Origin: Trichoplax sp. H2
Lineage: Eukaryota
DNA length: 64,000 nt
Direction of reading: 5' to 3'
NCBI GenBank assembly: GCA_003344405.1
Contig: NOWV01000016.1
Location: forward strand, 186,001 to 250,000
The notes under the pieces were generated by a model, which saw only the letters and a list, made by a program, of their open reading frames with translations, ran no database searches and was not told the DNA's origin. The translations under genes and the position numbers were made by a program. Numbering within the stretch: the first letter of the stretch is position 1; each line of letters starts with the position of its first letter. Below, piece by piece: positions 15,798 to 63,513 of this stretch.

Positions 15798-18700
15798 ATG
15801 TCCAAGGTTGAAGAAGGTTCTAGGCAAGGTAATCCTGATGGTCCAGCTGCAGATGATAAAGTAGCTGAAGCTATAAAGAGAGCGCAAAAAGTAAGTCAAG
15901 TACATCAGGAAAAAAATGCAAAAATACGTCGTATTGTACATCCATTGGAGATTGATAGTCTACTGTAGACGACAAAAGCATCAGTGAAAAATGGGTAGAA
16001 AATATCCCATTTCTTTCTTCATTCGCCATTGGATAACAACGATATTTTACCAATAAAAATACAGTAGATAAGAGCGGTGGTAATGACTGTACTGGGTTAT
16101 TTATCCCAGTTGAATTCTTGCCTCGCTATGATTATATCTGTGTCAAAAAAAGGCGATCAAGTGAGCTGTACTGTAAGTCAGTGATGTCATTATGGTAGCA
16201 GGAGACGAGAGCATACTGTACTGTACACTGCAGTGACATGTATACGATACACTACATGTAGTCGATCAGAAATGAATAGCCACCATGCAAAACATGTGCT
16301 TTGATAAGACATAGACTGCAATGGCAGTATGGATCCCTATCGCCTCGGAGGACATCGGTTATTATTCTCGGCTATCCCTTTAGAAATCATTTCCTACCTG
16401 CAAAATCATTCCTTATTTGATCGTATCAAAGTTTTACTTGTTAATACGGAGAAACAATCGCATTATTGCTACTCTGAAATAGTAAGATCTACAATATACA
16501 GTTCGTACGTCGTGCTAGCCTCTGTCACTGTTGAAAAAACATTCTCATCGCCCTTTCTGGTTAAATCTTTGAATTGGAAGGCAAGGAACGGAGTTAGTTC
16601 AATGAAATAGACAAATACATTTCTTACGGCTTGTCATGCAGTTGTAAATATATTACAGTCAAAATGATTAGTACATATTTAGTCCTTATGAACTAGCTAG
16701 CACTGATGTTCGATGATGGTGTAGCTGAGCCAATTCAATCAACCATACTGTACCAACCCAAAAAACGATTGATTGTACAGTACTGTGCGCTTATTTCAGC
16801 ATCTCTTGTACTTAATTTTGCTAACAATACCATCCATCACGGTCGTTAGGATGATATCAAAGTGGTCTGATATATGGTCCATACATGATAACGCTTTATC
16901 ATCAATTGATATTAATTTTTCTTTCCTTTCCTTCTAGATTGCAGCGCGTATTAGCGATGTCGGAGGTTCTGCTGAAGGTCGGTACTTGTATTTGAATTGT
17001 TTCAATTTGAAAATTTCAATCCAAAAAAATACTCTTTCCGCATAATTTACTACTAAGCGCAACGTGCTTATGTCAGCTTTAATTCTACTTTAGTCAGTCA
17101 ATAATGGAATTAGTCATCCTGTATAGCTGCATTTGGGCTATAAATACTGTACATTTTCATGACAGTGGGTACATTATCGTAAACCGTCAGCAAAGCGACG
17201 GGAGCTTGTACTAGTATTTATTATAATGTTATTTTCATTTTTCTCAGGTGATTCGACAAGAAAAAGGCCATTAGATACTCAGGGTACCACAATTGTAACA
17301 AGAATAGATGGTTTTTATAAAAGCAAAAGAGTAAATTGATCTATGTATAATGTTCATTAATTCTTGATACATCTTATGTAGACATTAAAACTATTGGAGG
17401 CGCCAACGAACCGCCATCCAAAAGAGCAGCTCCATCGGAAGGTTAGAATGCACTCATTTCAGAGATTTGGATACTATTTTCTCGACGTAGTTCAGTGATT
17501 GGCTAGCTAGTGTGATATACGTCGTAGCCGATATGATTTCAGTACTTTTTTGATACGATATTACTAACGCAAGATCGATCTATTAAATTTACTATGCATA
17601 GTAATAATACTCGATGAATTTGGTATCTACTCTTTATTTAAAAATAGTCGCACAAGCGATTCAAATTTGTTCATCTCATTTTACTTTTTTCTGATATGGT
17701 AATTGACAGCTACTGCAGCGGCTATTGATAGAGCTCAAGCTGTTGCGGCTAGTATAGCTGCAAGGTTGGTAATTTTTAAAGCTAATCTTGATTGCTAATT
17801 ATGATACTATTGGGAATGATTCTATGACATGAACGACTTATTGTCTACGATTGTGAATGATTGTAATGTATCAATTATTTTATTGGCTAAAAACAATTTT
17901 TTCACGGTCAATAATATGTATTCGTATAAATTTTTTTATGCATGACAGATCGGGTTTAAATTCAATTGTTGTGGAAGAAATCAAGATTCCGAATAAAATG
18001 ACAGGATTAGGTTAGTTTTGGACGTCATCTCTCTTTCTATTGGCTAAAGTGTAATCATATCATTAACAAACAACGTACGTGTACTTTTATTGTTTTAATT
18101 TATGTCCTGTTCTATTTGTCTGTGCATGATTATACCTGCAGTTATCGGTAAAGGTGGTGATTCCATTAATAAATTGCAAGCGGAATCTGGAGCAAAGATT
18201 CAAGTTCAACCAGGTGGTGATTCGTTTTATTTTTTATTCGCTTGCAGCTAGTACGAACTACTGAAATGTAGTACATATTCTTGAAAAGAAAGATCCAATT
18301 ATGTATTTGAAAGCATTGTCTAATAATACCGTCATTAATATGTAAAACATACAAAATTTTAATTCGAATGTGATAATGATACTGACTATCGCTAGATTCG
18401 ACTAATTATTACGGTATAATTAATTCCTTCCCAATGTATATTCAAACAGATGCTGATGCACAAGGAAAACCAGAAAGGATTGTTACCATAACTGGATCTG
18501 CTGTGAATGTTGAGTACGTATTGCCTTAAATTGAAAGAATAATGGAAGTCATATCTTACATTAAACTGCTTTTGAATCCCTTCTCATACTATATTGAACT
18601 CTTATTTTACGCAGTCAAGCAAAATATTTAATAGATCAAATGGTTAATGAAGGGCCAGCGGCAATGGTAAATTTCTTTATCATCAATCAAAGTCGATGCC

Positions 18701-21562
18701 TTAATATTATACGAGTTAGAATTAACTGATGGACGATTACATGTAATTTCTATCGGTAGCCGGGAAATGCTGCACCATTAGGTGCAATACCACCAGCTCA
18801 AAATGAGATAACCGAAGAGATTTTAGTTCCAGCAAATAAAGTAGGACTTGTAATTGGTAAGCAAGATATAACTTAATAAACTGAGTTTTCGTGGACGTGT
18901 GCATATTGAAAAATGGTTAAAACAAAGAAAATCCTTTCTATGTATTTCCATATATTTAACAGGCAAAGGAGGTGAAATGATTAGGAGCTTTCAGGTTGGC
19001 TGTATTACTTTACATTTCATGATCTTTGAATTTATTTGATGAAATATTTAACCTTTTTCCATCTTGCTATAACGTAATTAATTATTGACAACTTTATACA
19101 GGAACGAACACAAACACGCATGGTAATGGTCCAGGAATCATCTCATATTACTGGACGTGATAAGCCTCTTAGAATCGGTGGAGATCCACAACGAGTTAAG
19201 GTAAGGAAACTATTTCATATACTGGACGCCTTTATCTACAAATGTATGGAAAAATTAATTAATATATTATCTTACACGTTTACTACCACTGCTGTATATG
19301 TAGAGAGCGAAGGACATGATTATTGATTTTCTGACTCAACATGAAATGGAAAGCTCGGTCGGTACCTATCTATGTAGTGGTTAATGTGTTACATTTATAT
19401 TGTACAGTATTAATAGGCTTACCTTACTTTCTGCCATATTCAGAATTAAACTTTTGTTATAACGTTGGTATAACAATTTATTTACTTTATTAACAATAAA
19501 ATTGTCAACCAATTTTTGCAGCCGATGAAACCAGGTGGCGACTTTCGTAATCAATCTACTAATGATTATGGTACTCCTGTTCACAAACAAATGGGTGGAA
19601 TGGGAATGCTAGAGGTTATACTTATGCTTGATAAAAATTAGCATTGTATTATTATCATTATTATTATTATGTGCTAACAGTGTATACCGTTAGGTACCTG
19701 TACCTCGTGACGTTGTCGGCGTCGTAATCGGTAGAGGAGGCGAAACTATTAAGCGTATACAAATGGAAACTGGTACTAAAATACAGTTTAAGGAAGGTAA
19801 CGATATACTAATTAAAATCTATACTGTATAATATGGGTAATATGACAAGCTCAATTTTTTTTGTAGACAACTTTCGTATTTTTGCATGTAGTATAATAAT
19901 TATTCTTATTTCAGACTCAAATCCAAATCTACCAGACCGCATTGCCATGTTAACTGGTAATGATGACTCTGTGCAACGTGCGAATAAAATGATTAGTGAT
20001 CTAATAATGGAGGTACAGCGTTAATTAATATTAATATTAATAACAGCGGAATATAAGATTGCGCTATATGTAATATAAACACATTCGCGTGCGTATGTTA
20101 GAAACGAAGACAAGGCCCACCTGGAGGACAAGGTGGTATGATGGGCGGCCAAGGTGGAAGTGCGGAAGTTGTTATCCCAGCGAACAAATGTGGATTAGTG
20201 ATTGGAAAAGGTTAGATTATCCAAGTAACGTGGAACATTTATTGTACATAATATTACTATAGTTGATTGATTTATAATTTTTTTTCTAATAATAATAATG
20301 AACCTTTAAGGCGGCGAAACGATAAGACAAATTATCCAACAATCGGGAGCCCACGTTGAGTTAAATCGTAACACTCCACAAGAATCTCCCACTCGAATCT
20401 TTGTAGTCCGAGGTAAGATGTATTATGAATAAAAATTATAACTATATAGTATTAACTCCCTTGATGATAATTATTATTCACTTTTTGACCCTATCTAAAA
20501 TGTTGTAATTATCTCACTTAGGTGGACCGCAACAAATTCAGCATGCACAAATGATAATAAAGCAAAAGATTGGAGAAGAGATGGTATGTGTATAAAATTT
20601 TTATTGTTTAAATATAATTGGACCGTCTTGAGAGCTTAAGCTTTGATATATTGTGAATTTAAATTTAATTTTAGGGTGGAGCAGGCATGCAACCTGGAGG
20701 GTAAGTTTTTATTATTATTATAATAAATTTTTTTGTATTGATAATCATTGTTGTACTATCCATAGGCCTGCTGGCGGCTATCCTATGCCAGGTCAACAAA
20801 TGGCCTATTCCATGCAACAAGGTCAAAATTTTCCAAATCAGCAAAATTACACATCTTCACAGCAGCAACAACAACAACAACAACAATCTTATCAGGGATA
20901 TACATCACAGCAATCTCAGATGCCCCAACAGCCTGTAAGATACAGTATACTCATCTATTTGTGATGAGATACTTTTATTACGCATGTTTTACTTTTTATA
21001 TTTTATTCATATTTTGATTGTATTTGCTAAAGATCGCTGGTACAGCTACTCAAGCTGCAGGTAGATATTTGAAGATTTTATTTAAACTTGCAATTGAAAA
21101 TACAGGATTGATTCATCAAGTAATACCATAAACAATTATTTAAAAATTTGTAGGTCAAACAGGTCAAGATCAGAGTGCTTGGGCAAATTATTACCAAAAC
21201 TTCTATAATCAACCAACCGGAACAACTGCAGCCGCTGGTCAAATGGCAACTGCAAATCCTGGCCAGGCAACTGCAGCAACAACTCAACAAGGTATTGTAG
21301 TAATGCCAACTGGATATCCTGTTCTTTTACCCCATTTACTTGTAAAGTCTCAAACAAATATTAATATTAATTAGCAGCTCAACCGCAACAAGCTGGTAGC
21401 CAGCCAGATTATACCCAAGCTTGGATCGAATATTACCGTCAACAAGGTTTAAGTTACAACCCAAGTACAGGTACATTAACGCAATTAAATGCAGGTGGTC
21501 AAGCAGTTGGGAATCCGCAAGCAATGCAACCTGGACAAATGCACATGAATCCTACCCAATAA
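15798..21562 (+). CDS. FUBP: Far upstream element-binding protein (FUBP1/KHSRP/FUBP3/Psi family), four KH domains, many short exons
   Basis: N-terminal [14 protein letters not shown] helix (N-box-like). Four KH domains with GxxG loops: [11 protein letters not shown] (~18000-18170), GLVIGKGGEMI (~18840-18990), [11 protein letters not shown] (~19720), GLVIGKGGETI (~20190-20320). A Q-rich region follows, then Tyr-rich motifs [10 protein letters not shown] and [14 protein letters not shown]. Stop TAA at 21560-21562. Confidence 0.93.
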
Positions 21563-25490: not shown

Positions 25491-28009
25491 TTAAGATGAA
25501 CTAGTTGGAGTTGCTTGTACATCGGTAGTTTGGGTTACGTCGATTTCTTCTTCTGGGTCATCATCACTTCTACTATCGGATTGACTACCAAGATAGCTCT
25601 GACTATCGCATTCATTACCAGGATTGTCTATTGTGGTGGTATTCGGTGTTTTGGTTGTATTGCTACTTAGCGACGGGCGATGTCGGGCACTTTTCTGATG
25701 AGCCCTTAATCCAGCTAGTTGTGAATATGCACAGTTGCATACGTTACATTTATAGGGTTTTTCGCCAGTGTGTAGTCTCACGTGGTTGCGAAGTGTTGAT
25801 GATTGAGAAAAGCATTTCCGACAATATTTGCATTGGAATGGTTTTTCAGCTGTATGAATTCTCATATGCGATCTTAAGTTACTACGAGAGTTGAAGCCGC
25901 GAAAACATATTGTACATTTCATACGTCCTATTGGCATTTCCTGGTTATTTTTTTGAACGTTGTGCATGCAATTTCCAAATTGTTGGACGTCTAGATAATA
26001 TACGAAAGAAATCAATATATATATATATATATATATATATGTAAATATATATACATATGCGTGAAGAGTAATTAAAAGTTATTCCTATAGATTTATTGCA
26101 ATCTGTTATTCGTAACAGGAACGATCAGATACTACTGAATAAGCTGCTGTTGTTAGCTTTTAAAAATGACTGCAAATTTGTATGATGAATATCGATGTCG
26201 AAAGCAAAGGTGAAAATAATGCATGAGTGTTTAAAAATACTAGCAATAATATCCAAAACTTTATTGATTTTATTGTAATATCACCTCATATTATAACTTA
26301 TGATAGGGCTGATTCCCTAAACTGAATGGGCTACCAGTACTGTAGCAATCATTAACTAAACTGATTGCTATTATTTTCATGATCAATATTTATGTCATAT
26401 GAAATATGAAGTTGAAACTATACTAGTATTTGAAATACTACTGTGTAACAATAATTGATAACTCGTCTATTGTAACGTATTTTACTGTTTTGCTAATTAC
26501 GTCTTCAATCTCAATTCATTGTTACAAATTGGCTATTAGCAATTCATTACCGGGAATTCCAAGAAATTGAGCGTATTCAGGGCCATACCAAATTAATAAC
26601 TCGTGATCTGGAGGGATATCCTTGATTGCTTTATAGTACAACGTTCCATCACTATGTTGATGGAGGATTAAATTTTGCTCTGATGCATTTCGTGCGCAAT
26701 TGACAAAGCACATCCAATTGGTTGTGTTGCCACCACTGCCATCGATAAAATGACTTAATTCTCCATTTTGGTTGAGTACCTGCCAATATGCATAGAAGAT
26801 GATAATATTAGCATTACGTTCGTTTTCTCCTACTATGTCAGGATAATCGAATCTATGAGAAAAAAATTTACTATGCACATAAATATCATTCATATATCGT
26901 ATCTGCATAATCTTTGCTGATATAAGTGTAGTAACTATTCTAAATGTCATTGATCTTAAAGCTTGACAATTGTTTACATTATAACTCTACCTTGTAAGAC
27001 TAAAGTCACTACACAAGTCTAGTAACGTTAAGAAAATCATAGGATGTTAAATGGCAAGCATAACTAAATCAGCTCTGTATCGAATAGGGTAGATAAATAA
27101 CGAGATATGATTCAGTTTAGACTGAACTTATTTACGTTGTGAGCATAATATATAGGAGAAATTGTATATGATGTCGAACTTGATTGTAAGGTGTATTTTT
27201 ACTAATGTTAATTTTACCCATAATTACCTCCCACATAAATTCATTCCTGGTTGATTCATTAATTTCATTCTTAGACACATAGCGACCAGTAAATGGGCCC
27301 ATCTCTGTTCCTTCGCTTATCCATCGATCATGGCTAAAAACACCCAGTTGGACATGAGGTAGGGATGATTGCTTAATAATGATGCCATCAGGTACATAAA
27401 CTAATCGTTCGCTATCACGACCACCTAGAAATAGTGGATGAGGTTCCAGCACAGCTAATTTTTGTGTTCGTCCACCTTATCGAGTTGATGGATTATGGTG
27501 GTGAATATATTTAGATAGAAATAAGGACTAATTAATAACGGGATATATTTTAGATACGAGCAATGACTAATTAATAACAGTTTACATGATTAAGATGATG
27601 AATATATTTTAGATAGAGGTAATGGCTAATTAATAACGGTTTGCATTATTATCATCATAAATATATTTAGATAGCGATAAGGACTAATTAATAATGGGAT
27701 ACATTTTTACTAGAAATAATATTAACGGGCGCGCATAGAATATCTGTGGAATTAAAAAGTTTGAATGACTTAAAACTTACAATCATCACTTTGAACGATA
27801 AAACGATAGCCTCGACATTGATAGAAATGAGATCCAGGCGTTAATTGTCTCTTTTGATCACCTAAGACGTCGCAAAATTTTCCATACAAGATATTGCGTA
27901 GGTGCTCTTCACGAAATGAGAAAATTTTTCTACTGTTTGTTAGTGGTTCTGATAAAGCATAAGAAGGATGAGAAGGATTAGAAAGGAGCCATGGTAAACT
28001 TGCTGCCAT
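25491..28009 (-). CDS. PRDM12: PR/SET-domain zinc-finger protein PRDM12, 4 exons
   Basis: Exons 28009-27781, 27425-27228, 26779-26551, 25990-25491 are phase-compatible. PR domain motifs: [33 protein letters not shown]. The three C2H2 fingers [60 protein letters not shown] are nearly identical to vertebrate PRDM12 as I recall it. The N-terminal [11 protein letters not shown] also resembles PRDM12. Confidence 0.95.
26016..26056. repeat. (TA)n microsatellite close to the acceptor of PRDM12 exon 4
   Basis: About 12 TA units directly visible, plus an interrupted extension. Confidence 0.9.
27500..27720. repeat. Four copies of an ATATATTT(T)AGATA..CTAATTAATAA unit in PRDM12 intron 1
   Basis: CTAATTAATAA at 27528, 27567, 27626 and 27684, each preceded by ATATATTTAGATA-like sequence. 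Confidence 0.85.
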
Positions 28010-28774
28010 TGCTGAGGTCAGGATGATTTGAAGTTAATTGAGAGAAAGAGTTTCAATTTTTTTTCCGGGATCAACAGGATAACGTATAAGGTATGAAGTA
28101 GACTAAATAATTTCTATGTCATGCAATTATAGAAGTATTATAGACTAAAATTAGCTTGTAAAGGGAAAGTTGTAGTTTTTTTAATATTGGCGAATGAATA
28201 AGCTGATTAATGAGAGGATTATCTTGATCATCTTTTATATATATATATACACTCCTAGCATAGTTATTGTCATAACTTTGTTAATTAATTAAGGAAGTTT
28301 ATGGTGGGATTTTTCCTATTATTGTTGATATTCTTCTGATTATTTCAATTGGCATTATTGTGATAGAGTAAATAGACAACATAGTTATGAAGGTCATGCG
28401 ATGAGTGATAGAAATAGCAAGAAAATTAAAATCGTTTTAAAATAGTTATTTACTATCATTAAGAAAAGTTTAGTGATTGATTAAAATGCATTGATGATAG
28501 ATGTTTTTTGGATAGATCTCTATTTATTTTAGTATTGTTGAAGCATGGAAAAATAACCATAATAATCTATTGTCAATAACATCACCTGTTCTAGTAATAT
28601 CTTTTTAAATAGTAGAATTGGCTTATGTCAATAACGTTAGCAGTTGGAATGAAAACATTCCAATCCTATTCTACAAATGGGAAAATTTGCAGGCACTTGT
28701 TTTGCATCAATACATACAATCACTGTGATAGGACAGTGATGAGAAAGTTGACAAGGAATTGTTTGCAAGATGGA

Positions 28775-29200
28775 CAGGATGTACAAATGATTTACATTGC
28801 AATTTGATGGTCGGTTAATGTTAGATTGAAGACAAATGATTGAAGAGTAAATGGCTTCCTTTGCAATGAAAAATCTGTTAATGATGGATTAAGGACAAAT
28901 GATTGTAAAGCAAATGAGTTGTATTGCTATGATCAATCTGTTATGGATTTTGGACAAGTCATAGAAGGTTTTGGATGAGTCATATTGCCACGGAATGATC
29001 TGTTAATGACAGGATTGGAGATAAATGATAAAAGAGAGTAAATAGATTCTATTTTATTTTAAGGATCCATTACATCAGTAGATTGAAAATAGATGCAAAT
29101 GACTTGGTTTTGTTGCTCTAAATGATCTGTTTATAATCGTGGAAGAGTAAATGAACTGTTAATTTTAGTTTAAGAATTGATTACATGAGATGATTAGAAC
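28775..29200. repeat. Degenerate ~62-bp tandem repeat upstream of PRDM12
   Basis: ACAAATGATT near 28783, 28832 and 28895; ATCTGTT near 28873, 28936, 28998 and 29124. Confidence 0.65.
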
Positions 29201-32200
29201 AAGTTTGATATTAAATTGAGTTTTATAGTGACTGAAAGATTTTTTAATTAAATGGAACAACAAATGAACTTTCTCTATTTCATGTTAAGGATCTTTTGTA
29301 CAAGTAGATTGAGAACAAATGACATAAGATTTCGTTTCGTTATAACTGGACAATCTATTAGTCATGATAGGAAAGTAAACGAGTTCTATTCTGTTTGAAA
29401 ATTGGATAGTCATGGACTGAAGATAACGGAATAAAAATTGGAATACACTGATTAGGAAGAATAAATCTTAACCTGAAGATTTTTATTTCAAGAGATGATT
29501 ACAATGAGTCAATTGAACGATAACTATTAACACTGATAAGTAGCTGGAAAGATGCCTTTGGCTTATTGCATATTAATGGCAATGATCTTATTCAGCCAAA
29601 TAAAATAAATGCTATTAAAGGTGTCTGATTGTATGAATAAGATTAGGATTATTGCATAATCGAAACATAATTAGGCATTAACGAAAACAACAGGCACATT
29701 TTGGGCAGGGAATAATTTCTAAATAGTTTCGATTAATTATCTTCCATTATCATTTATGAGTAACATTAAATCAATCTACTATTTTTTAATTTGCCATCAT
29801 CACATTTAAAGTCAAACGCTGTAATTTTTGAAAGAAATTTAATTTTTGTTCCAGGAAGAGAATAATGAATGAAAATACAGAGTAGACTGATCAAATTTTC
29901 AAATTTAATAACAGCTAGGACACGACGATAAATTAAGAAAAAAGAAACGCTTTAAAGACTAGAAGATAATTTCTAGATTTCATTTCCATGAAGAAAGATA
30001 TTAGATATCAAAGAATTGGCTATTAAATTATCAATTTCTTATTCTTGTAGAATATATTCATTTCGAGATCATGTTAAGTCTTAACATATGTCTTAATATC
30101 GTGAACTTTACATAAGATATTTTTATATTTCATTGATATAATGATGTTCGAGATTGGGTAAATAAAATTCATGAAGATGGGCTTTATTTAATTAATTAAA
30201 GGATAAAATTCCTCAACAAATTGAGAGCAACGTATCACGTTGACTCATAATTTGATATTATTTGATGCCTTCTATCGTCATGGATGATTTATTTGTCTTA
30301 TATTTGATACTGTCTTAAATGGATTATAATTATTAACAACATACTAAACAAAATATGAAAGACTTTACAGATAAATAGGGTAGTCGCCAGTTACTTTCTT
30401 GATGATATTGCCAGCATTTTACGCTATATCGTAAAGTAGTTGATAGAGAACGTATAAATACCGTAACTGGTTTTAAACGTAATCTGTAGTATTTTATTTT
30501 GTATTTATTCGTTTATCGTATTAAACGGATACTCAGTAACGTAGTAAAAATTTAAAACATAACGGCTGTAATGATAAAGAAAACAATCATTAATAGCTTT
30601 TGATAATTTTCAGTAAAATAGCTTACTGGAGGCTCATTAATATTAGCGACTGCTTTAAATGGAATTTTTAATGTCATATTTTACATTATTCATAGATGAT
30701 AGACAACCTAGTAAAATAAGAGCATGAAAATACTTTATAGGTAAACAGAATTGCGATCTTGTTGGTATTACTATCATTTGCAGTAGTATCAGTATATAGA
30801 TAATAGATAACGTACGAACTGTTTTTAATAAATGTAACCCAGTTTAATTAATTTTATATCATCTTAGATGGATAGTGACCAACTTGTAGAGCGACAAAAT
30901 ATCGATTTTAGAGATAGACATGATAACTATTAACAATCAGATTTCCAATCAAGTTGTTGATGGAGAATTTGTAAGCGTTAGAACTGCTTTTTAAATAAAA
31001 TGGTTATTGAATGATACCCTTATTGCAAGGTAAAATTGTAAAAGAGTTTATTCGATAGCAAGATAATCCTTCATTGGATGTGATATTTTTCAGTAATGTG
31101 ACTAGTCGATAAAGGATTAATAGTTAGAACTGCCTTTACGTTTAATCTAGTTTATTAATTTTCGCGTTTTATACCACTTCTAATTTGTAATGAATAGCAT
31201 CATGAAAAATGTTAAAATACAAAGGATTGAATTAATAAATAAGAAAAATATTAATTATTGTATTGATAATATAATTATCTGCCAATGCTACCTATAAAAC
31301 TAGTTGATAGACAAGTCGATAAAACTTATCGAAAATGAATACTTTGATAATTAATCATTGTTTTTAAATTATGTTCAAATTACATAAATATCCCCGACAG
31401 TGGAGGCAACAATAAGGATAAATAGTGTTGAATAAGATTATGATGTAACCTAATCACTAAAATTAGTTGAAAGCTATAAACTTTAATTAGTGCAGTTGGA
31501 ATGACTATCTTTAACTTTAATTTAGTGCTTGTGATTGACTACTATTATATTCTGAATTTTATGATGAGAGAAATGACGGCTGAATATTGCTCACTCTAAT
31601 TAAGACTTGTATTTGTGTCTACTTCTAATATATGATATCAAACTAGTTACTTTGTGGAATAATGATTATATTGAGTAATCTCTTTCTAAATGCGCTACTA
31701 TAAGAAGGATAAAGACATTCTAGATTAATGATTGGATTAAGTATTATTCTATCTTATTAAATGAAAATAGATAGGTAATATTTCTTGCATTCTTGTGGAT
31801 TGATGATTCCTGATAGCTTTTACTACTAGTTAAGTTAGCACCATGACTAAGGTTCACACATTTTGATAGCTTACCAAACCTATTATGCACTTCTAGCTAT
31901 GCAGTGAAACTATTACATAAAGTAATCATATATTACCACCGCTAATTTAATTAAATGACAATTAACTAATAACTTGATCAGTTTGGTATAAGAAACAGAA
32001 TACTACTATACATAGTACTAGTGATTTGCAAACTATCAGGAACATGTAAGATAAGACGGGTTTTAAGTCTTGATTTTCTGTAGAATCTTGTCAGTTTTAA
32101 CTGTTTTTGACGATATTATTATATCCATCCAGACGTGTGTAGTTATTGGATGATCAATCTTTAGTTTTAGTTGACTTTCTGTCTAGTATTAAATACAGCT

Positions 32201-36449: not shown

Positions 36450-36520
36450 ACCGGAAATGATGATCATCATGAATAAGATTGGACTTGCGCATGCGCGATG
36501 CAACTGAGATCGCTTCCGTT
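36450..36520. promoter_or_regulatory. Candidate DOLPP1 proximal promoter: NRF1-type palindrome and ETS-type sites
   Basis: GCGCATGCGC at 36487-36496, ACCGGAAAT at 36450-36458 and CTTCCG at ~36513. All lie 120-190 bp upstream of the ATG in an otherwise AT-rich background. Confidence 0.55.
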
Positions 36521-36635
36521 GGAATGGATCTCCTTTATTACTACGCATGTCTGATCGCTTTCTCGTCTTATTCTAGTCGACCATGTTGGCTGCCTCCAAG
36601 TAGAAAGAGAGATAGAGAGAATCCAAATTAGAGCC

Positions 36636-44800: not shown

Positions 44801-45315
44801 AGAAATTTAAATGTTTTCTTTGCAATTATAAAATATCTCTTAGTTAATAGGTGTTCACGACTGGCCGTCAAATAGACGAATGTTTTAATTTAAGTAAAGT
44901 AGGTGTGAACATGCGAGTTATATTATAAAAAACATTTAGGCAAGTAAGTTATTCAACTTATGGATGAGTATTTTAAAGTAGTAGACATATTATTTTACTG
45001 TATACTTGTTATTATATCGATGGTTATTACCCAATTGTTATGCTGTTTGGCTCTTTCTTTCAGCTTTTCATTAAGAGTATGTCCGATACCACCGGATTCA
45101 CCAAATTTTTCAACTATTTTTTTGGTATTTTCGAATTCAACAGAAGTTAATAATGGCTTAATTGATAGCAAGTATCGATCTAATGTATCCTTTAACGGAG
45201 GAACAGGCAAGTGAGGTAGTGAGGATTGATGAGTTAAAAACCCACGAGCAGCAGTGATTACTGGTAATAGCCTTTGCTGATGATAGAGCTTCGTTTTCAT
45301 GATTGTTTTCAGCAT
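41807..45315 (-). CDS. CRAT: Carnitine O-acetyltransferase (choline/carnitine acyltransferase family), multi-exon
   Basis: Motifs: HQSSLPHLPVPPLKDTLDRYL, NWLAEWWLNYAYLEYR, PMCMIQH..CRVP, GILTSNDRDSWA, NRWFDKTI, catalytic NYEHSAGEGPP, SPDGFFQIAMQLAYY, TYESG..GRTETIRS, GHGWDRHLLG, LSTSQV, FGPTAPDCYGVCY. The protein ends LLTKPKL* (TAA 41809-41807). The true N-terminus is uncertain: ATG 45315 or an upstream exon. Confidence 0.9.
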
Positions 45316-48169: not shown

Positions 48170-48686
48170 AACTACGAACCGGTAGTGCTAGCCATGAAGA
48201 ACTAGGCCAAGGAAACCTACAGTATAAGCACTTGTGATCAATTCGGCAAGAACGTACCGACTAAGAACTAAAAACCAGTAGAGCTAGCCATGAAGAACTA
48301 GGCCAAGGAAACCTACAGTATAAGCACTTGTGATCAATTCGGTAAGAACGAACCGACTAAGAACTAAAAACCAGTAGAGCTAGCCATGAAGAACTAGGCC
48401 AAGGAAACCTACAGTATAAGCACTTGTGATCAATTCGGTAAGAACGAACCGACTAAGAACTAAAAACCAGTAGAGCTAGCCATGAAGAACTAGGCCAAGG
48501 AAACCTACAGTATAAGCACTTGTGATCAATTCGGTAAGAACGAACCGACTAAGAACTAAAAACCAGTAGAGCTAGCCATGAAGAACTAGGCCAAGGAAAC
48601 CTACAGTATAAGCACTTATGATCAATTCGGCAAGAACGTACCGACTAAGAACCAGTAGTGCTAGCCATGAAGAACTAGGCCAAGTC
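48170..48686. repeat. 96-bp tandem minisatellite, 5 full near-identical copies plus a partial
   Basis: CCATGAAGAACTAGGCCAAG recurs at 48192, 48288, 48384, 48480, 48576 and 48665. Confidence 0.97.
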
Positions 48687-49590
48687 GACAATCTATTTTG
48701 CACACTAGGAGACTGGTAGTAGAACACTAGAGCAAAGATACGATGTGCAAATAAATTGTCACCTATTTCATGCCACAGTCTTCCTTATACTGTAGTGTAC
48801 TTGTATCTTGATAAATAAGAGGAGAAACGAAGGCCATGCGACAATCTATTTTGCACACTAGGAGACTGGTAGTAGAACACTACAGCAAGATACGATGTGC
48901 AAATAAATTGTCACCTATTTCATGCCACAGTTTTCCTCATCAGTAGTAGAATTGTATCTTGCTAAATAACAGGAGAAACGAAGGCCATGCGACAATCTAT
49001 TTTGCACACTAGGAGACTGGTAGTAGAACACTACAGCAAGATACGATATGCAAATAAATTGTCACCTATTTCATGCCACAGTTTTCCTCATACTGTAGTG
49101 TACTTGTATCTTGCTAAATAACAGGTGAAACGAAGGCCATGCGACAATCTATTTTGCACACTAGGAGACTGGTAGTAGAACACTACAGCAAGATACGATA
49201 TGCAAATAAATTGTCACCTATTGCATGCCACAGTCTTCCTCATACTGTAGTGTACTTGTATGGTGCTATGCGGCCATCTATTTTGCACACGAGAAGACTC
49301 GTAGTAGCTTAGAAGAGCAAGATACGATGTGCAAATAAGTTGTCACCTATTTCTTGCCACAGTTCTAGTTGTACTGTTTATGTATTTTGCTGAAAAAGAG
49401 ATGAAACCGAGGGCGTGTGAAAATCTATCTTGCACTTTAGCAGACTCTTAGTAGTACAGTACAATAAGATACTATGTACAAATAAATTGCCATCTATTTT
49501 ATGTTACAGTCTTGTTTATACAGAATTTGTATCCAGCTAAAAAAAAGAGATGAAACGGAGCCCATGCGACAATCTATTTTGCACACTAGC
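48687..49590. repeat. ~152-bp tandem repeat, about 6 copies, decaying toward SNRNP40
   Basis: GACAATCTATTTTGCACACTAG occurs at 48687, 48840, 48991, 49143 and 49568, with diverged copies near 49273 and 49419. Confidence 0.95.
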
Positions 49591-49788
49591 AAACTCGTAG
49601 GGTGGTTAATGCGCTTGTCTCTTCTGGAAGGTGCGCAGACTCTGTTCAATCGTAGCATCATCCTTGGCTGTGATATTGCTCTGTATACTATACCATAGTG
49701 TCAAGAAGTACTGTATGGGATAGTCAACTGCAGTACAATATACAACGCACGCTTGGAGCGCCTATACAAAGCTTCAAGAAGTGCAAAC

Positions 49789-52700
49789 ATGGCGACCGTT
49801 GGTGTTAAACGCGCTAACGATGACAACTTTGATGGGACTGTAGTTGCTGTCAAGAAGAATAAATATGAATTAGAAGTCAGCCGAAAGAATCAGCAATTAA
49901 TTGCTTCGGTAATAGTCAAGTTTGATAGGGTTTAACTTAGCTTAATAACACTTTTATCTTGTATGATCAGAAAAACATGTCTTTCGCTTATGCTGTCGAT
50001 AGTATACCAACCCAATCGACCCTTTGATCCATCCATAGACACTTTTGCATTCAATAGACTGTATATTCAGTGATCTTGCCATAAAATCATATCTTTCCAA
50101 CCTCTATCTAATTGAACTAGATGGAGTAATGTCCTCGTTAGGATATAGAAGCGTTCGAATGTTGGAAAATAACTTGCATGGGCTCAATAGCTTATTTATT
50201 GTCGAATATATTCAAATCCTATGCAACAATCACTTTATTCCTCGACAGTCTAGTATAGCCCTGTGTTGATCGTAGTTTGTCGCATTAATGCTCAATTACA
50301 ACACTTACAGTTTTGGACTTTATCCAAGACAGTAACTGCGTGGAATAAGCATGGATAGTGTAAATAAATTGCCCTAGCACAAACCATCAGTATGAGTAAA
50401 GAGCTGATGTCCTTTTTAATATTCTAAATCGTATGCCATCGGAAATGGCCTCGGTAGACGATCAGCTTGAAAGAGCTACATGATTGGCATAAGCTCAACA
50501 GCTTGTTGTCTGATATCGAAATCCTATACGACAGTACAGTAACTTTTATTCCTCGACAATAGCAGGTATTTGTTGATAATAATTTGTCGTAGTGATGTCC
50601 AGTTGACAACACGTATTTGGACTTTATGCCGCACACTGTGTGCGTGAAATAAGAATGGATAGTACGAGTAAATGAATTACCTCAGTAGAAATCATCAGTA
50701 CGAGTAAAGAACTAGTGAGCCTTGTACTATTATTATATCCGTAAAGCGTAAACTATCAGGCTGAAACAGCTACATGATTGAAAGGGATATTTATCGAAGT
50801 CATACCCGGTGACAGTACCTGGTGCATTTTGTCAAATATAGGACTGTAATAGGTGAAGTGAAAGTGGATGGTAAATCACTTGTGTCACTACAACCGAAAG
50901 GTCTGTGGATATGCTCGCGAAATTATACTGTAATCTGTTTTCTTCCTATAACCTTATGCCTTTGATCACCGAGCAATAGACTTGTTGCAATCAAAAGATG
51001 GTGTATGCTATCTTATGACAACGAACTACATCTCAACATTTTATAGCAACCATACCATGACGATGTAGTAATAAACTATATATAAATGTTCTTGTTATAT
51101 TTCTACCGCCCAATTAATATACTCTTATGTATACGTGATACTAAATCCTTCTTTGTCTGTAATGACAGGGTCCTCCTCGAACTTCATCACTTTTGGCACC
51201 AATTATGCTGCTAACTGGTCATGAGGTAAACTGAATAGTCATAGATTACTTATTACTAAGTAAAAGCTGCTCGGAAGATTTACTGTATGTATGACTAAGG
51301 ATCGATGGAATATGACCACTGTAGAAAAGTGATCAATATTGCTATTGGGTATTGTAGGGAGAAATATATACAGCTAAATTTCATCCTGATGGGGAAGTGC
51401 TGGCTTCTGCTTCCTTTGAAAGAAAAATTTGTAAGTCGGTTTTCTACACATTCTATTTTTTATTATTCAAAAAATTCGTTTAAAAGTGGACATGATCAAT
51501 AAGTCAGCATTCTCACTGCAACAGCAGTGCTAATAAACACCTTAACCATTAAGGTTTCTACAAAATACTATCTTTACTCTTCCTGTTCAAGCTGAATGTG
51601 AGATGTTATTTACAGTTGAGAAATTAGAAAATATTACTTGTGAAAGGATTGATTCACTATGCATATTGATTTAATATTACTACGGTATAATCTACTGTTG
51701 ATTATTTACGATTTACTACGGGTTTAGTCTAAATTAAACTGATAAATGTGTAAAGTCTCAATCTCATGCAAGTAATCATCAAATGTAATCCCCTTAACTT
51801 TAAGCGTATAATAATGATCACCAACTTTAACCTTGTCAATAAATTGTACCCTTATTTTCTTAGTTTTGTGGAATATTTATGGTGAGTGTGAAAATTATGC
51901 TATCCTGGAAGGTCATAAAGGAGCCGTTTTAGACTTGCACTTTTCTACAGATGGCAGGTACTTACTGAAACCATATGCGTATTTATTATTTTAGACTGGC
52001 ACTATAATTGCGAGAAAATAGTATTTTAAGGAATTGTAGCATAAGCAGAAAAAAGTGCTATCATTAAGATCAAACTATTGTGGTATTGTCTAAAAAGGAT
52101 ATGTTGTTTATTCTTTAGCCAACTGTTTTCAGCTTCAACAGATAAAACTGCAGCAATATGGGACTTTGAATCTGGGCAAAGAACTAAAAAGTTTAAAGGC
52201 CATACAGGTATTGTAAATAGTTGCCACCCATCTCGCCGTGGGACCCAAATGCTTGTTACAGGATCTGATGATTGTACTGCGAAATTGTGGGATGTTAGAA
52301 GAAGAGAACCAGTACATTCATTCCAGAGCAATTATCAAGTAATTTGATAAAATATTTCTCTTATATTTTAGAGGTATCAACGTAAGGATATGATTCTAGT
52401 TTATAAAATTAACACTTATTTCGTTTCCCTTTAAAGGTCACAGCCGTAAGTTTTAACGACACAGGTGATCAAATTATATCTGGTGGTTTGGATAACGTGA
52501 TTAGGGTAATGGATATGATTTAATTACATTCTTAAATACGATAAGTTATTTTTATGTTACGGCTATTAATAAGAATGTGGTGAAAGCATACGTACATGAG
52601 ATCTATAATGTATTTTACGATCTATTCTCTCGTTTAGGTGTGGGATTTGCGTAAGAACAATATCATGTATTCTATGTCTGGACATCTTGATACTATTACT

Positions 52701-53550
52701 AGTTTAAGTGTAAGCCCTGATGGATGTTATGTTATGTCTAATGCTATGGATAATTCAGGTATGTGAAATATTATTATATTAGTAGTGAAATTCTTTCAGC
52801 ATTTCGTAATTTTATTAAGGTACCATTTTATCTCATCCTACTCCTTCTTAAATCGTACAGTTCGTATTTGGGACATAAGACCTTACGTACCGGGTGATCG
52901 ATGTCTTAAAATTTTCACTGGAGCTCAACACAATTTTGAAAAGGTAACATTGTAGGAATGCAACATTGATAAACCTCTAATTATATGAACTAATAAAAGC
53001 TAACTCTTGGTATTGTATTGCAGAATCTTTTGAAATGTAGCTGGTCACCGGATGGCAAAAAAATTGCAGCTGGTTCAGCGGATAGGTAAACGATCGAATT
53101 ATTCGTAGGCAGTTCCATATACTGTATACATATTTGTATCCTTAATTTGTAGTTGGTATCACGTAATGACCAATACCGTATGAAATAATTCTTTAACACA
53201 GTAGATTCAAGTAAATATCATTTACTTGCAATCTCAAGGCATCATTTCTGGCAAGAGACAATAATTGCTAATTTAAAATTTATATTTACTAGATTTGTAT
53301 ATGTATGGGATACTGCGACACGACGTATATTATACAAACTACCAGGACATGATGGATCAGTAAATGACGTCCAGTTTCATCCTATCGAACCTATAGGTTG
53401 TTATGAGTCTGATTATTATCATAGGATACTGTCAGCTACCTTTGTGTAATTAAATGTGCTAATACATCTTGTGCTTATTCTAATTTTCTCATTGCAGTGA
53501 TGTCTTGCGGTAGTGATAAGAAAATCTACCTTGGAGAGCTTGAATTGTAA
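49789..53550 (+). CDS. SNRNP40: U5 snRNP 40 kDa WD40-repeat protein, about 11 exons
   Basis: MATVGVKR..|GPPRTSSLLAPIMLLTGHE|GEIYTAKFHPDG..LWNIYGECENYAILEGHKGAVLDLHFS..FSASTDKT..GHTGIVNSC..GSDDCTAKLWD..VWDLRK..SNAMDNS..GAQHNFEKNLLKCSWSPDG..GSADRFVYVWD..LYKLPGHDGSVN..FHP..GSDKKIYLGELEL*. Confidence 0.95.
50170..50785. repeat. Diverged ~300-bp tandem duplication in SNRNP40 intron 1
   Basis: The blocks AAATCCTAT, TTTATTCCTCGACA, TTTGGACTTTAT, TGCGTGxAATAAGxATGGATAGT and CATCAGTAxGAGTAAAGA each occur twice, about 300-315 bp apart. Confidence 0.8.
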
Positions 53551-53949
53551 ATAAGCACGAAAGAATATAGTGATAGCAATCGAGATATGAATCTGGATCA
53601 TCGACTTTTCTGTATCTGTTACAGCTAACCATATTGATAGTATTTAATGTTTTTATAATTGCTCTTATTATAACTGATAGTACAAGGCAAATTACAAATA
53701 CCTTTATGTCATTCCATATATGGAAGCATTTGTTATTTTATGGCAAACCCTACTGTCTTTGTACGGTTATAGCAGCATACTTTTTTCCCCTCTACTTGAA
53801 ATTTAGATTAAGTCACCATTTAAAATTTCCGTTATTACGTCAAATAAAGGCAGACATGATATTCTTAAATTGACGTAATACAGAGTATATTGCTTTAATT
53901 GAGCTGCTATTATAAATATTCAGCTTCTTTTAATGTTTAAAGCTTTAGT

Positions 53950-57558: not shown

Positions 57559-60500
57559 TTAGACAACAAGATTCAAACCATTGGAGTTGGTTGAATTAGT
57601 CTTATCTACTTGCTGTATTGATCGACGATATTTAGCTCGGGCATTCTGAAACCAAACTTGTAATACACGCTTGTTTAATCCTGTCTTTATTGATAATTGC
57701 TTTAGATCTTTACTATCTGGGTTATGATTAAGAGCAAAATAAGTTTTCATAGTTCGTAACTGAGGTTGTTTAAATGATGTTCTTATACGTTTCGATCTCC
57801 CATGTTCATCAGTAATGTCATCTAATACCATTTTACCGAAATCGTCGTCGTCCTTGTCGTGGCCTGATTAAATGAATAATATATATATGTATACCATGAG
57901 TTATATTGAATTCGTTAAAGATCATAATTATTGTGCCGTCGCAATTGAGAAACATAAGTATTGGGCAGATTTTCCTATTACTTATCTTGTTTAGTGTATT
58001 TAGTTTAGATTTAACGCGTTTATCAGCATACGGCATGAAATTGATGATATAAATGACTAGTTAAATTACTAATGACTTTTAAACGTAGACAAGTATTGAA
58101 ATTATTAGAATTGTATTAATTTATGTGATAAATAAGATATCAAACTATTAGTACTCGTAAATCTAAAATTAGAGGGAAATATTACTACTATGCCATGTTT
58201 TTAAACGGAGATAATAGCGTTTACTAGTATTATTTACTCAAGTGATTGTTATAAATACCGTAATTAATCTATACTAATAATTAAATATCTTTAATTTCGT
58301 AAGAGAGTGCTGAGCTAGTTATTGTTTTATCAAGCTAAAAATACTATATAAATCTGAATAATTGGCTAGTATAATATTACTATAACAATTATACTCTATA
58401 TACGCGCTGAAATACTATTCACTATTAGTTATAGTATGTATTCATTGCTCTAACACTTACGGTAATCTAATGATTAGTATTGAACACCGATAAGTACTTA
58501 AACTTTACAAATTATTTATTCATTCAATTAATTTACAAAGCTAAATATTACTACGTAGTCTTACACGAAAATTTAGTAAATGTGATACTAGTACGGTATG
58601 ATGCTTCTGAACTGAACTGGTAAGTGTCTGATATATTAATTAATTTAATACTATTAAAGCTATACAGTAATTATCTATACTAAGAATTAACTTTTATTTT
58701 ATTTTTAAGAAATTACAAAATTTATTAATATTTCATCCAAATTAAAATACCAATATAAATTCAGGGAATCTGCTAGTACCGCATCGTTTTGGTTCTAAAG
58801 ACTACATACATGCTAATATGTTCGCTAATATTCATTACAAAAATTATCATTTGGAGCTATTTTGTACAGAAGGAAATAACTTATTTAGTACATTGTAGAA
58901 ATTTCAGTAGTCCAACTTTGTGGCTGATACATGCACTGTATACAAGCATATTATCTCGCTACATTTTATCGGTTATACGGTTTTACTATGACAGTTAACA
59001 AAGTATGCTATGTAAGAATAGTTTCAAGATAGGCAGCGCTATTCTCAGCTCTTGCCCACTCAACCGACAATATCTTACCTTTTCCGTTGATGCTTGGATT
59101 ACTGTTTATATGATGGTTACCATAATCAGGACTTGAATTAGAGCTATCATGATTTTCTCCTGAATTATCTTTATTAGAATGATGTGAGTGCCGATGATCG
59201 TTAGTAATAGATTGAAAATGCTCTTTGCAATATAATTTGCATCCTCTCATTGCAAATTCTTCGCCAGTTTTTAACAATCTATTACATGTGTGGCAAATAA
59301 AGCAAGAACAATGATAAGCATACTCTCTTGCTTTCATAACATGTTCTTTAGGTGATATACCAGAATTACAAGTTGGACATTTGATGCTACCAAAACGGCT
59401 ATAACGACCATCATTTCAGGTGATGAAGAGCCAGGTTGTAGGATTGATCAAAGGGAGATCATATATATAATAAGAGGATACATTGATTAATATATTGATC
59501 AGGAATTATAGTTTCAGCGAAGATCAATATGATCACATTAGAGCCAGGTATGGAAATAGAAATCAATTTTAATAGAGTATTATATAATTTATTAAAAATG
59601 CATTCATAAAGTCTTTAAAGCAATGAAAAAAAGGGATCTAAATTAGCTAATTTATTGGTTTTAATAAATCAGAACTGGAATTAGTTATGTAAAATAAAAC
59701 TAGTATATATTATTTTAGCTGCTCAAAAATTTTATGTTTGTAAAGTGGTCCTAAGTTCTATTTAATAGTCTCATTATAGTCCGTAAATTTAAACTATAGC
59801 TATAACTTTTGTTAGGTTTAGATCTCTGGTATGACATAGAATACTTTTACCTGTAGATATTGATAGTTTATGTTATGAGTATAGATATTTTAGAGCTATA
59901 ATACCATCTCTAAAACATACTTTCGATACACGAACATCAACTCAATCGTATGAATTTGTATATAGCCGCAAAAGAATGATCAAGTAATATAGGAGTCTCC
60001 ACATGTCTGAATATAACCTATAAAATTTCGCTACATAATTGGCTGTTCTAAAACTATCCATGAATTCTTTAGTGAATTTGTAATATGGGAATTGTTTATA
60101 CGTAAAGTATCAATCTCTAAATTTTATAATACAAAAGGTGCCTATATAACAAGAAAAAACATTGTCTCCTTTTGACTTTGGACCTTCAAAGCAAAAGCTA
60201 ACGGTACGAAAACACGGTTATCTTGTTATTGTTGTCATATGGTTGTGGAAAGAAATCTATAGGATCGATTTCAGTGTTATTCATTATCATTTTAAGTATA
60301 CAGAAAAACTGGAATAGAAGAACAAAGAGGAATTGTAGTTATTTTGAGAAAGGATTCCTTTATCTCTGAGCTACTAGTTAAGGGTCCAACAGCTAATATC
60401 TACCATAACAGTAACAGGATGACGGATTCGATGGCATGGTATTAGTCTCTTAAAGTTTTTGCGGTAATGATTAAATATAGCTGAATCTATTAGTCAAGAG

Positions 60501-63500
60501 AATAAGTAATAGATGGCATGGTTGAAGTCTATCCGAGGTTAATATCAATTATTGGTCTGTAAATGGCGAAAATCAAAGAACTAAGTAGACAACATTATTA
60601 AAATAAAATCTAAATTAACTTAGCATGATAGATCATGACGTCAAGATATTATTGCTGTTATTAAGCTATTAAGCTATAAATTATACTTATAAGACCAATT
60701 CTAGATACAACTTTAAGCTACAACATGTTTTACAAGCTAAACTCAAAGTTTTAATCAATGTCTACAGTTGCTATTGTCAATAAAATATTAATCATTGTCG
60801 AATGTCGATAAAGTTATTTACAAAAAAATTTGATGAGTCTTAGACAATCTATATACCTAGCTCAAATCCTCATAAATTTAGATATCTTCACTAGACAGTT
60901 TGTATCTAATACTTGGCAGTCACACTCATTTAAGGATGAGAATATTTCGGAAAATGGCGAGGGAAGAACTAGAATATACGCGTACGTAGAAACAACCTGC
61001 TTTCAGTATTTCTACTGATCTGACTTGCTACCTCATCAAACTGCTATGATAAGCCCATAGGCTGTTGTACAAAAATGGATAAGACTATAGTATATTATTC
61101 ATAATCTACATGAACTATCAATAAATCAGTAATTTTGCTACGTTGATTACCTAGATCGTTTAGTAAAGGGAAAAATATTACGAAAATTCAACATCAATGA
61201 ATTAGAGTGGATTCTGTAGCTACCGAGTTGAAAACGGAAATTGAATTTGGGATCAAACAAAACAATAGATGTCATCTACAGAACTCTATTTGAGATCTAA
61301 ACATCATGGGATATGGAAAAATTAAACTGTTTTAGACTATGAGAGTTAGTGATAGCAAAATACCGAAATAAACTGTTAGTAAATATCTGGATAGCACGAT
61401 GGTATAAATTTCATTTAAAAAATCCATAAAAGTGTGAGCAGAAAGTAATTAGAGTGTCCATATAGAATACTTTTACACGGTCGATTGAATGCAGAAAAAC
61501 ATTTTGATGAAACTAGTTCTTAAACTCGACTATTCATCTGTCGCTGATCTCTCTATTAAATTAGGAAGTTAACTTATCTATCACATGTTTTTATGAATTA
61601 CTGGACAGTATTGTTATTTAACATAGAATTTTTATAAACGAAGACATATAAAGTAAGAACTGATAGATAATGTGTTACATGGAAGCTATTTCTTCCTCGG
61701 TATATACATTTATCTACCATATTTTTTCGTGAATTATTGGACAGTATTGTTATTTAACGTAGAATTATTATGAACTAAGATTTATAAAGGAAGAACTGAT
61801 GAACAATGTTTTACATGGATGCTGTTTCTTTCTTGGTAGATATATTTATCTATCGTATTTTTCGTGAATTAATGGACCGTGTTGTTATTTAAGGGAGAAT
61901 TTTTATAAACTAAGACTTATAAAGTAAAACCGATAGTCAATGTGTTACATGGAAGCTATTTCTCTCTCAGTAGATATATTCATCTATCATATTTTTTTAT
62001 ATATTACTGGATAGTATTATTATTTAACGTAGAATTTTTATAAACTAAGACTTATAAAGGAAGAAGTGATAGACAATATCTTGTATGGAAACTATTTCTT
62101 TCTCGCTAGATACTTTTATCTATCATATTTTCATGAATTACTGGACAGTAATGTTATTTAATGTAAAATTATTATAAACTAAGATTCATATAGGAAGAAG
62201 TGGTCGATAATGTGTTAAATGGAACTCTTTCTAACTGAAATTGTAAAATATAACACCAATCAATAAAATAATTTATATTTCCCTATAAAAATAGGACAGT
62301 ATATTTATCTATCGTTAAGTATCTTCATTATTTTTGAGCAATATTACTTTTTAACCTCAAATTTTAGAGGTAAAGAAGAGTAAAAGTAAGAATAGATGGG
62401 TACGGTAATGTATATTATAAGAATAAAAATTTGTTAGATTAAAAATACAGACTATAATATCAATTGATATAACGATTGTTTTTCCTCTTTTATAAATGCA
62501 TATGTTTATCTATCACTAAATTTCGCCTGTAATAAGGGGGCAATATCAATTTTAATCTAGAATTATTATGAAATTAGAGTGATAAAATAAGGACTGATCG
62601 AAAATACATAAAATCATAGCCTAAATACCACAAACTATAACATCAAGAGCTATTTCCTCAGACAAGAAATCGTATATAACTAATACAATTTCTCGTATTC
62701 TATACAAATGTTGTATGAGATTTAAGAAGATCGCTGTTCAAAGTTGTAAATTTAAATAAAATTATTCAATGGTGTCTAGGAATGAAATCAGTATTTCTTC
62801 TATTTTTTTTGGAGAGGGATTTACATGTTCTCTGTCTATATCAAAACAATCTATCCTTCTATTGCAAGATTACTTTCTATTTTGATTAAACTGAATTGAG
62901 CATTCATACGAAAGAAAGAAAGAAATTCCCTTATGACGAAATTAGATGATGTATTTGCAATTGAAAGAAAAGGAACATGTATTGTAACAGTAGATTGGAT
63001 GTATTGAAAGATTAATATGGATAGATAATGGACAAGAAAGTTAATCGACTACTTGACAAAATGACATGTAAAAAATAAAAAGTTTTCAATGGGCATTCAA
63101 AGAATAAAACGGCAGACAGGATGGAAATTGAAAAAATAATAAGAGGGGAGACTCTGATAAAATACTTTAAAAGACAAAAAAAGTATAGGAAATCAATTTA
63201 ATAGCAGTTGTGACATTGATTAGCTATGTCTACGTTATGAGTATTGCCATGATTACAATTACTTAGACACCTACTTGAAATAATCGGTCCTACAAAAGAT
63301 GTTGCCTTGCTTAACATAGCAACTTTGATCTTTATCTAATGGTTCATTGCAGTCATAGCATCGCAAACATTGTATGTGCCATTTTTTGTCGGTTTTTTGA
63401 ATACCCAGATATTCTTGATCCATGATACTACGACCACAGCCAGCACAGTATTCATTAAGTCTTCCCAGTGGATGACGATGATGATGAGCATGAGTTGTTA

Positions 63501-63513
63501 GTTCATTAAGCAA
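57559..63513 (-). CDS. LHX2/9: LIM-homeobox protein of the LHX2/9 (apterous) subfamily; 5' end not identified
   Basis: Exons 63513-63275 (LIM1, CAGC..WHIQCLRCYDC..FCRTDY), 59398-59079 (LIM2, CPTC..YHCSCFICHTC..LYCKEH) and 57863-57559. The last encodes the homeodomain KRIRTSFKQPQLRTMKTYFALNHNPDSKDLKQLSIKTGLNKRVLQVWFQNARAKYRR, which is diagnostic of LHX2/9. Position 63513 directly follows an AG acceptor, so an upstream exon is missing. Confidence 0.93.
61570..62230. repeat. ~135-bp degenerate tandem repeat (5 copies) in an LHX2/9 intron
   Basis: GAATTACTGGACAGTATTGTTATTTAA...ATAAAGxAAGAA...TTACATGGAAGCTATTTCT recurs, with GGA(C/T)xGT anchors near 61603, 61739, 61874, 62009 and 62143. Confidence 0.9.

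Follow-up and report, generated by a model that had tools for sequence, protein, structure and literature searches.

The window analysed here is a 64,000-nt stretch of the Trichoplax sp. H2 genome (positions 186001-250000 of the contig labelled C197; assembly 94.9 Mb). Its DNA is eukaryotic and rich in introns, with 27-42% GC. An earlier note had read deep microsynteny with human 9q33-34 into six genes in the order FUBP(+), PRDM12(-), DOLPP1(+), CRAT(-), SNRNP40(+) and LHX2/9(-), and genes, order and strands were all borne out (Table 1). All six form open spliced models with GT-AG introns; RNA contigs confirm the modelled splice joints of PRDM12 and those of most CRAT introns (10 listed), one CRAT acceptor having been placed by these contigs. 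The coding ends are separated, in gene order, by 3928, 8626, 1687, 4473 and 4006 nt, and a codon-score scan of the intergenic stretches brought out a single extra coding-like segment (45546-45689, 48 aa) that had no Pfam match. FUBP is directly adjacent to PRDM12 and DOLPP1 to CRAT, and we conclude below that each of these two pairs is probably ancestral. A comparison of the window with one related DNA run gave too few differences to reveal constraint.

Table 1 Genes and other features of the window (positions counted from its first nucleotide).
Feature	Position	Strand	Description
TACAGTA/TACTGTA-type short-repeat cluster	14780..16300		FUBP promoter and first intron; 46 motif matches from -1000 to +500 of the ATG
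FUBP, single pre-duplication gene for FUBP1/FUBP3/KHSRP	15798..21562	+	23 exons, 625 aa, four KH domains, FUBP_C motifs
PRDM12	25491..28009	-	4 exons, 401 aa; PR/SET domain, three C2H2 fingers; coding end 3928 nt from that of FUBP, the two convergent
AT-rich 8.6-kb interval	28010..36635		Upstream of PRDM12 and DOLPP1 alike; 28% GC
DOLPP1-type PAP2 phosphatase	36636..40119	+	9 exons, 233 aa; weak PAP2 match (E 5e-4)
Gap between polyadenylated DOLPP1 and CRAT ends	40657..41516		~0.86 kb; A-tail behind 40656, T-tail before 41517, one run
CRAT-type carnitine acetyltransferase	41807..45315	-	13 exons, 631 aa, C-terminal PKL; RNA joints
Two tandem arrays between CRAT and SNRNP40	48156..49600		96-nt and ~151-nt units
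SNRNP40 (U5-40K)	49789..53552	+	11 exons, 351 aa; best natural PDB match U5 40 kDa protein
LHX2/9 (apterous class)	57559..63513	-	LIM-LIM-homeodomain; three exons modelled, without 5' end; introns 3876, 1215 nt

The FUBP gene of Trichoplax stands for FUBP1, FUBP3 and KHSRP jointly. It has Pfam KH_1 and FUBP_C matches and one locus genome-wide; in a search with one of its exons Trichoplax adhaerens FUBP was closest, followed by vertebrate FUBP3, and the homologue matches listed were mainly FUBP3 of fish and sharks. PRDM12, a determinant of pain neurons in vertebrates, carries the only finger array of its type in the genome (next best 53%). Because its SET exon alone slightly favours PRDM14 (74.4 bits) over PRDM12 (71.4 bits), the assignment is made from the protein as a whole and from its fingers; a search with the zinc-finger exon gave only many-finger proteins among the 120 matches listed. 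By eye the model agrees with Tadh_prdm12 as printed by Vervoort et al., which that family study placed as PRDM12 (PMC4760075). Orthology holds for both members of this pair.

For the second pair, identity is less even. PAP2 catalytic motifs are visible in the DOLPP1 model beside the weak PAP2 match, and its name follows from what we take to be likeness to the human protein, making it the least tested identification of the six. An exon search returned one unnamed fragment only, and the DOLPP1 pieces yielded no usable match in ESM Atlas or NCBIfam. Two CRAT exons have CRAT as their best PDB match. CRAT-like genes number at least nine in this genome: four loci are on C197 and others on C320, C408, C424, C544 and C1085. 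We built a tree with references that had been retrieved with the window's own exon, ChAT and CROT being outside this set, and excluded one reference without shared columns and one partial copy. In it, the eight alignable placozoan copies form one clade (support 93.7/76) in which the window copy branches first. For 19 of 20 references this copy also comes first, alone or in a tie, in identity, and it is the most conserved of the CRAT-like genes, while one paralogue exon scored equally on CROT and CRAT. Judged from these sequences, CRAT orthology is one-to-many. The placozoan expansion of CRAT-like acyltransferases is of interest in its own right with regard to the synthesis of acetylcholine in an animal that has no neurons, again with the limit that the tree holds no ChAT reference.

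We take human DOLPP1 and CRAT to be strictly adjacent and tail-to-tail, and human FUBP3 and PRDM12 to be strictly adjacent on the same strand. On this assumption both pairs, directly adjacent in the window, fall within the limit of at most four intervening genes used for conserved ancestral microsyntenic pairs (CAMPs). The part of the earlier note's claim about human neighbours that concerns proximity is documented in print; strict adjacency and strands stay presumed. CRAT, DOLPP1 and PPP2R4/PTPA of human 9q34.11 lie within ~12 kb of the same single-nucleotide polymorphisms (PMC4581711), and in birds PTPA, CRAT, DOLPP1 and MIGA2 share one 50-kb window (PMC10516731). One segment of human 9q34.1 contains both PRDM12 and FUBP3 (PMC8383316), as does one quantitative trait locus region in pig (PMC4837538). 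A literature search found no paper on deep synteny of PRDM12/FUBP3 or DOLPP1/CRAT by title or abstract.

How often such neighbours arise by chance can be estimated. Among 3557 human-Trichoplax markers, Lv et al. (2011) found 51% to be macrosyntenic and 1.38% of adjacencies (~49) to be common, and their model fits these data with chromosome membership constrained and local order free (PMC3283319). Our own chance estimate, which assumes 13-29 linkage groups, gave 0.19-0.42% chance-shared adjacency, and our simulation 10-17 chance pairs per genome. The published rate is about four to five times this estimate, leaving 69-86% of the common human-Trichoplax adjacencies beyond chance and 14-31% as the chance share. 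Since common adjacencies (1.4%) exceed chance about four- to fivefold, each pair is probably ancestral, and inheritance rather than re-formation, as the earlier note had proposed, is the likelier origin. Two common adjacencies out of five have a P of 0.0019 at the published rate (~1.3 such windows per genome) and of ~1e-4 under pure re-adjacency (0.03-0.11 windows per genome). The window was chosen after the fact; it falls in the upper tail, yet its occurrence is no surprise.

The earlier note had also called for orthology and neighbour analysis in intermediate lineages; orthology stood for PRDM12 and FUBP and turned out one-to-many for CRAT, and the pairs themselves were seen neither in an amphioxus table nor at metagenome loci, both of thin coverage. 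The table (PMC13012124, Dataset S2) holds only blocks of at least three genes common to all five amphioxus species. In the portion of it searched, DOLPP1 ends a six-gene block that includes QTRT1, TRMT1L and PPAN, two CRAT/CHAT-labelled rows lie thousands of gene numbers from DOLPP1 with no DOLPP1-CRAT pair, and FUBP, KHSRP and PRDM12 have no rows. A metagenome scan yielded 40 zinc-finger loci, ~15 of them PRDM12-like and animal; none of the 40 matched FUBP or the other four genes within flanks of at most ~6 kb downstream and ~1 kb upstream. At locus L032, from another animal, the next gene downstream of PRDM12 is a convergent BAF, not FUBP. The part of the block table of Robert et al. that was searched (PMC8851819) has no row for PRDM12, FUBP, KHSRP, DOLPP1, CRAT, LHX2 or SNRNP40, and the supplements of Nakatani et al., in all but one file, contain none of these genes. 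The portions of the main text of Irimia et al. (2012) covered here do not name the pairs' genes, which its pair tables may list (PMC3514665). As to PRDM12 itself, loci L023, L026 and L027 of other animals have four exons laid out as in the placozoan gene and share with it, outside the SET domain, a short conserved stretch near the N-terminus; L030 and L032 have additional introns.

Genes along C197:1-460000 were annotated from codon scores, Pfam matches and recognition, leaving out large or ambiguous families and unidentified open reading frames. Of 34 genes assignable to one human gene or a small family, 23 fit human 1q23-31/1p31, 6p21, 9q31-34 and 19p13, where the human positions of all 34, and several gene names, are those we presume. 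The fitting genes are DDX39, NDOR1, DARS2, ODR4, RABL6, PTGES2, ABHD16A, PBX, ATP13A1, C6orf136, DUSP12, VPS52, ASPM, SLC31A, FUBP, PRDM12, DOLPP1, CRAT, LHX2/9, SLC44A, SEC16, TSC1 and ZER1; outside the paralogon are RPL28, TM9SF, TXNL4B, SNRNP35, LYRM2, SNRNP40, NIN, CBS, ISCU, CLIP3/4 and SLC25A19. Paralogon genes are thus in excess on this segment, with their order scrambled: of three pairs retained on it, the two strict ones lie in the window and the third, PBX-ATP13A1, is loose. Furthermore, DOLPP1, PBX and DARS2 share one chromosome in amphioxus (B. floridae numbers 14908-15855), in the range of VARS, GTF2H4 and ABCA, which are like genes of the major histocompatibility complex (MHC). 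Amphioxus SNRNP40 (number 29201) has a distant gene number and is on another chromosome than DOLPP1 and PBX, so its position on human chr1, cited by the earlier note, lends no support, and SNRNP40 is outside the paralogon. SNRNP40 apart, the genes' place in the linkage group of the 9q33-34 paralogon is supported.

At this scale the match is not new. A placozoan proto-MHC was reportedly described by Suurvali et al. in 2014. That 2014 paper is cited in a review (PMC5002281), Srivastava et al. (2010) assigned the Trichoplax apterous scaffold to an ancestral linkage group to which human segments carrying six or seven LHX genes also belong (PMC2828406), and human chromosomes 1, 6, 9 and 19 are matched by one amphioxus chromosome (PMC13012124). 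Correspondence with the human 1/6/9/19 paralogon at the scale of chromosomes is established.

LHX2/9 occupies a single locus in the genome, with a Pfam LIM-LIM-homeodomain architecture and Lhx9 as its sole PDB match at E<1e-14; its introns are the longest among the six genes. A Met-led coding-like segment ~7.8 kb past the window end (L001:7805-8044, minus strand) is a candidate first exon, for which no convincing join was found. The neighbours of LHX2/9 here are SNRNP40 and an SLC44-family gene, neither of which, we presume, adjoins human LHX2 or LHX9. We rejected SNRNP40 and LHX2/9 as members of a neighbourhood shared with human.

The earlier note went further and suggested a regulatory block, with PRDM12 and LHX2/9 enhancers in or near bystander genes; this is unsupported. 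Irimia et al. characterise such blocks by four features: a developmental gene paired with a bystander, long introns in the bystander, conserved elements inside introns, and enhancers (PMC3514665). A developmental regulator beside a bystander was found in FUBP-PRDM12 only, DOLPP1-CRAT having no developmental gene and LHX2/9 no common human neighbour. FUBP has 22 introns, all told 3.9 kb; they are short, with a median of 106 nt and a longest of 1047 nt (intron 1), and similar to those of CRAT (median 104 nt), with the proviso that a compact genome lowers the expected size. Non-coding comparison of window positions 15-41 kb with 12 PRDM12 loci of other animals gave no match better than E 0.13, with low power at such distance and loci without FUBP. 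Moreover, FUBP and PRDM12 cannot have passed from same-strand (presumed in human) to convergent unless a break occurred between them, so the FUBP-PRDM12 interval was not inherited intact; the change of orientation as such fits chance, local inversion or selection for proximity alike.

PRDM12 and LHX2/9 each look to have regulatory space of their own, in the 8.6-kb gene-free interval and the longest introns, respectively. The interval points away from FUBP, shows no coding-like segment by scan and has almost no RNA contig cover (almost nil at 29.1-36.4 kb, where missing cover is not proof of gene absence); we regard it as the most likely site of putative PRDM12 enhancers. At the FUBP promoter, in contrast to the PRDM12 one, short TACAGTA/TACTGTA-type repeats are dense: from -1000 to +500 of the ATG we counted 46 matches for FUBP versus 0 for PRDM12, 1 each for DOLPP1 and CRAT and 7 for SNRNP40. 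Similar clusters occupy 23 one-kb bins of C197:1-460000, with dense ones near the starts of DDX39, DARS2, PBX/ATP13A1, ASPM and SEC16 as well as FUBP. Kim et al. (2025) described a Mutator-linked motif at placozoan housekeeping promoter hubs, promoter-enhancer contacts making up only 7-10% of contacts (PMC12221973). The cluster may be this loop-anchor motif.

We give about an even chance to the reading that both pairs are leftovers of ancestral order in a slowly rearranging genome, retained without special constraint. On this reading the window belongs to the ancestral linkage group of animals from which the human 1q/6p21/9q32-34/19p13 paralogon derives; exchanges between chromosomes are rare and leave genes on their chromosome while inversions scramble their order, as shown in print and as fits the contig. 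The pairs may have survived in placozoans and the vertebrate line, both presumably slow to rearrange, where the gaps would be small break targets; DOLPP1-CRAT would be one since its transcript ends lie ~0.86 kb apart. DOLPP1-CRAT would have kept its tail-to-tail layout, FUBP-PRDM12 would have undergone at least one local inversion, and no regulatory tie would be needed. Several points weigh against this. With ~1-2% of adjacencies surviving, the survivors are plausibly enriched for constrained pairs, and developmental-plus-bystander pairs are enriched among conserved ones (29.4% vs 19.5%; Irimia et al., PMC3514665). The FUBP-PRDM12 adjacency outlived a break between the two genes, which selection for proximity would explain well. 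Finally, a multi-copy CRAT next to amphioxus DOLPP1 could be hidden by a table of blocks of at least three genes, and FUBP and PRDM12 are outside that table. That one or both pairs were instead re-formed, same-chromosome genes shuffled by inversions becoming neighbours anew in two lineages, appears rather unlikely to us. It draws on the chance share of common adjacencies (14-31%, or 10-17 per genome in simulation), on the four CRAT-like genes of the contig, which raise the odds if any copy counts, on the presumed difference in FUBP-PRDM12 orientation from human, and on both pairs being unseen in the amphioxus table and metagenome loci. Nevertheless, two chance pairs in five adjacencies are expected in just 0.03-0.11 windows per genome, the CRAT copy next to DOLPP1 is the most conserved one (19/20 references), and this pair runs tail-to-tail as presumably in human.

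Constraint could take two forms. Short, CRAT-like FUBP introns, the 8.6-kb upstream interval that PRDM12 owns on the side away from FUBP, the lack of non-coding matches better than E 0.13 (at low power, among 12 loci without FUBP), BAF after PRDM12 at L032 and a motif cluster more suggestive of a housekeeping promoter hub than of an enhancer all argue against an ancient genomic regulatory block in which PRDM12 enhancers in FUBP introns kept the genes close and inversion was tolerated. Such a block would have the right composition, a developmental regulator and a housekeeping gene with 22 introns, its adjacency outlasted the orientation change, FUBP intron 1 reaches 1047 nt and placozoan promoter-enhancer loops exist (7-10% of contacts; PMC12221973), yet we consider it unlikely. 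Its strong form, a block kept since the placozoan-bilaterian ancestor by PRDM12 enhancers inside FUBP, surviving inversion and predating neurons, is similarly doubtful; if true, PRDM12 enhancers would be sought in human FUBP3 introns and this regulation would be dated before nervous systems. For DOLPP1-CRAT, a common 3' element, that is, overlapping termination or 3' processing signals of the convergent genes, would suit the transcript ends ~0.86 kb apart and the layout, presumed identical in human. In birds, too, the two genes belong to this cluster (PMC10516731). We judge this very improbable: the two transcripts do not overlap in the RNA contigs examined, the genes have no common pathway, the pair is absent from the amphioxus block, and conserved co-regulated pairs are head-to-head in 54.8% of cases (PMC3514665).

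Further features accompany these genes. Directly upstream of SNRNP40 lie tandem 96-nt units that are 94-100% alike (48156-48650) and ~151-nt units (48735-49600). Two convergent paralogous genes at ~4780-8400 (+) and 10040-12400 (-) are presumably pyridoxal phosphate-dependent aminotransferases; three of their exons were scanned and had no Pfam match. Within C197:1-165000, orthologues of human MHC-region genes (DDX39, ABHD16A, C6orf136 and VPS52, names partly presumed) are mixed with 9q34 and 1q genes. At ~104-127 kb of the contig (L019, L018, L017, L016), PBX stands head-to-head with ATP13A1, with one small CHCH-domain gene between them, and human PBX4 and ATP13A1 are, we assume, two genes apart at 19p13.11. 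PBX-ATP13A1, which includes a developmental gene, is a candidate for a third old pair; the five-amphioxus block table does not contain ATP13A1.

In summary, the window adds one case to a placozoan-human synteny that is already well described, and brings two gene pairs that are candidates for ancient linkage. It does not differ at chromosome scale from the metazoan MHC-paralogon linkage group, in which PBX, LHX2/9, DOLPP1, DARS2, VPS52, TSC1, SEC16, ASPM and others share one chromosome in scrambled order; the two pairs are finer detail, not found in the texts searched. With the genomic regulatory blocks Isl-Scaper and Otx-Ehbp1 (PMC3514665), FUBP-PRDM12 shares the combination of a developmental regulator and a housekeeping gene; the differences are that FUBP has no long introns and no conserved non-coding element was found in the comparison with the 12 PRDM12 loci, that DOLPP1-CRAT has no developmental gene and LHX2/9 no shared bystander. 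CAMPs, as defined by Irimia et al. (2012), need linkage in at least four lineages, whereas the window's pairs are known from a placozoan and vertebrates; like CAMPs, these pairs consist of unrelated genes adjacent in distant animals, for which Otx-Ehbp1 is a published placozoan-to-human case (PMC3514665).

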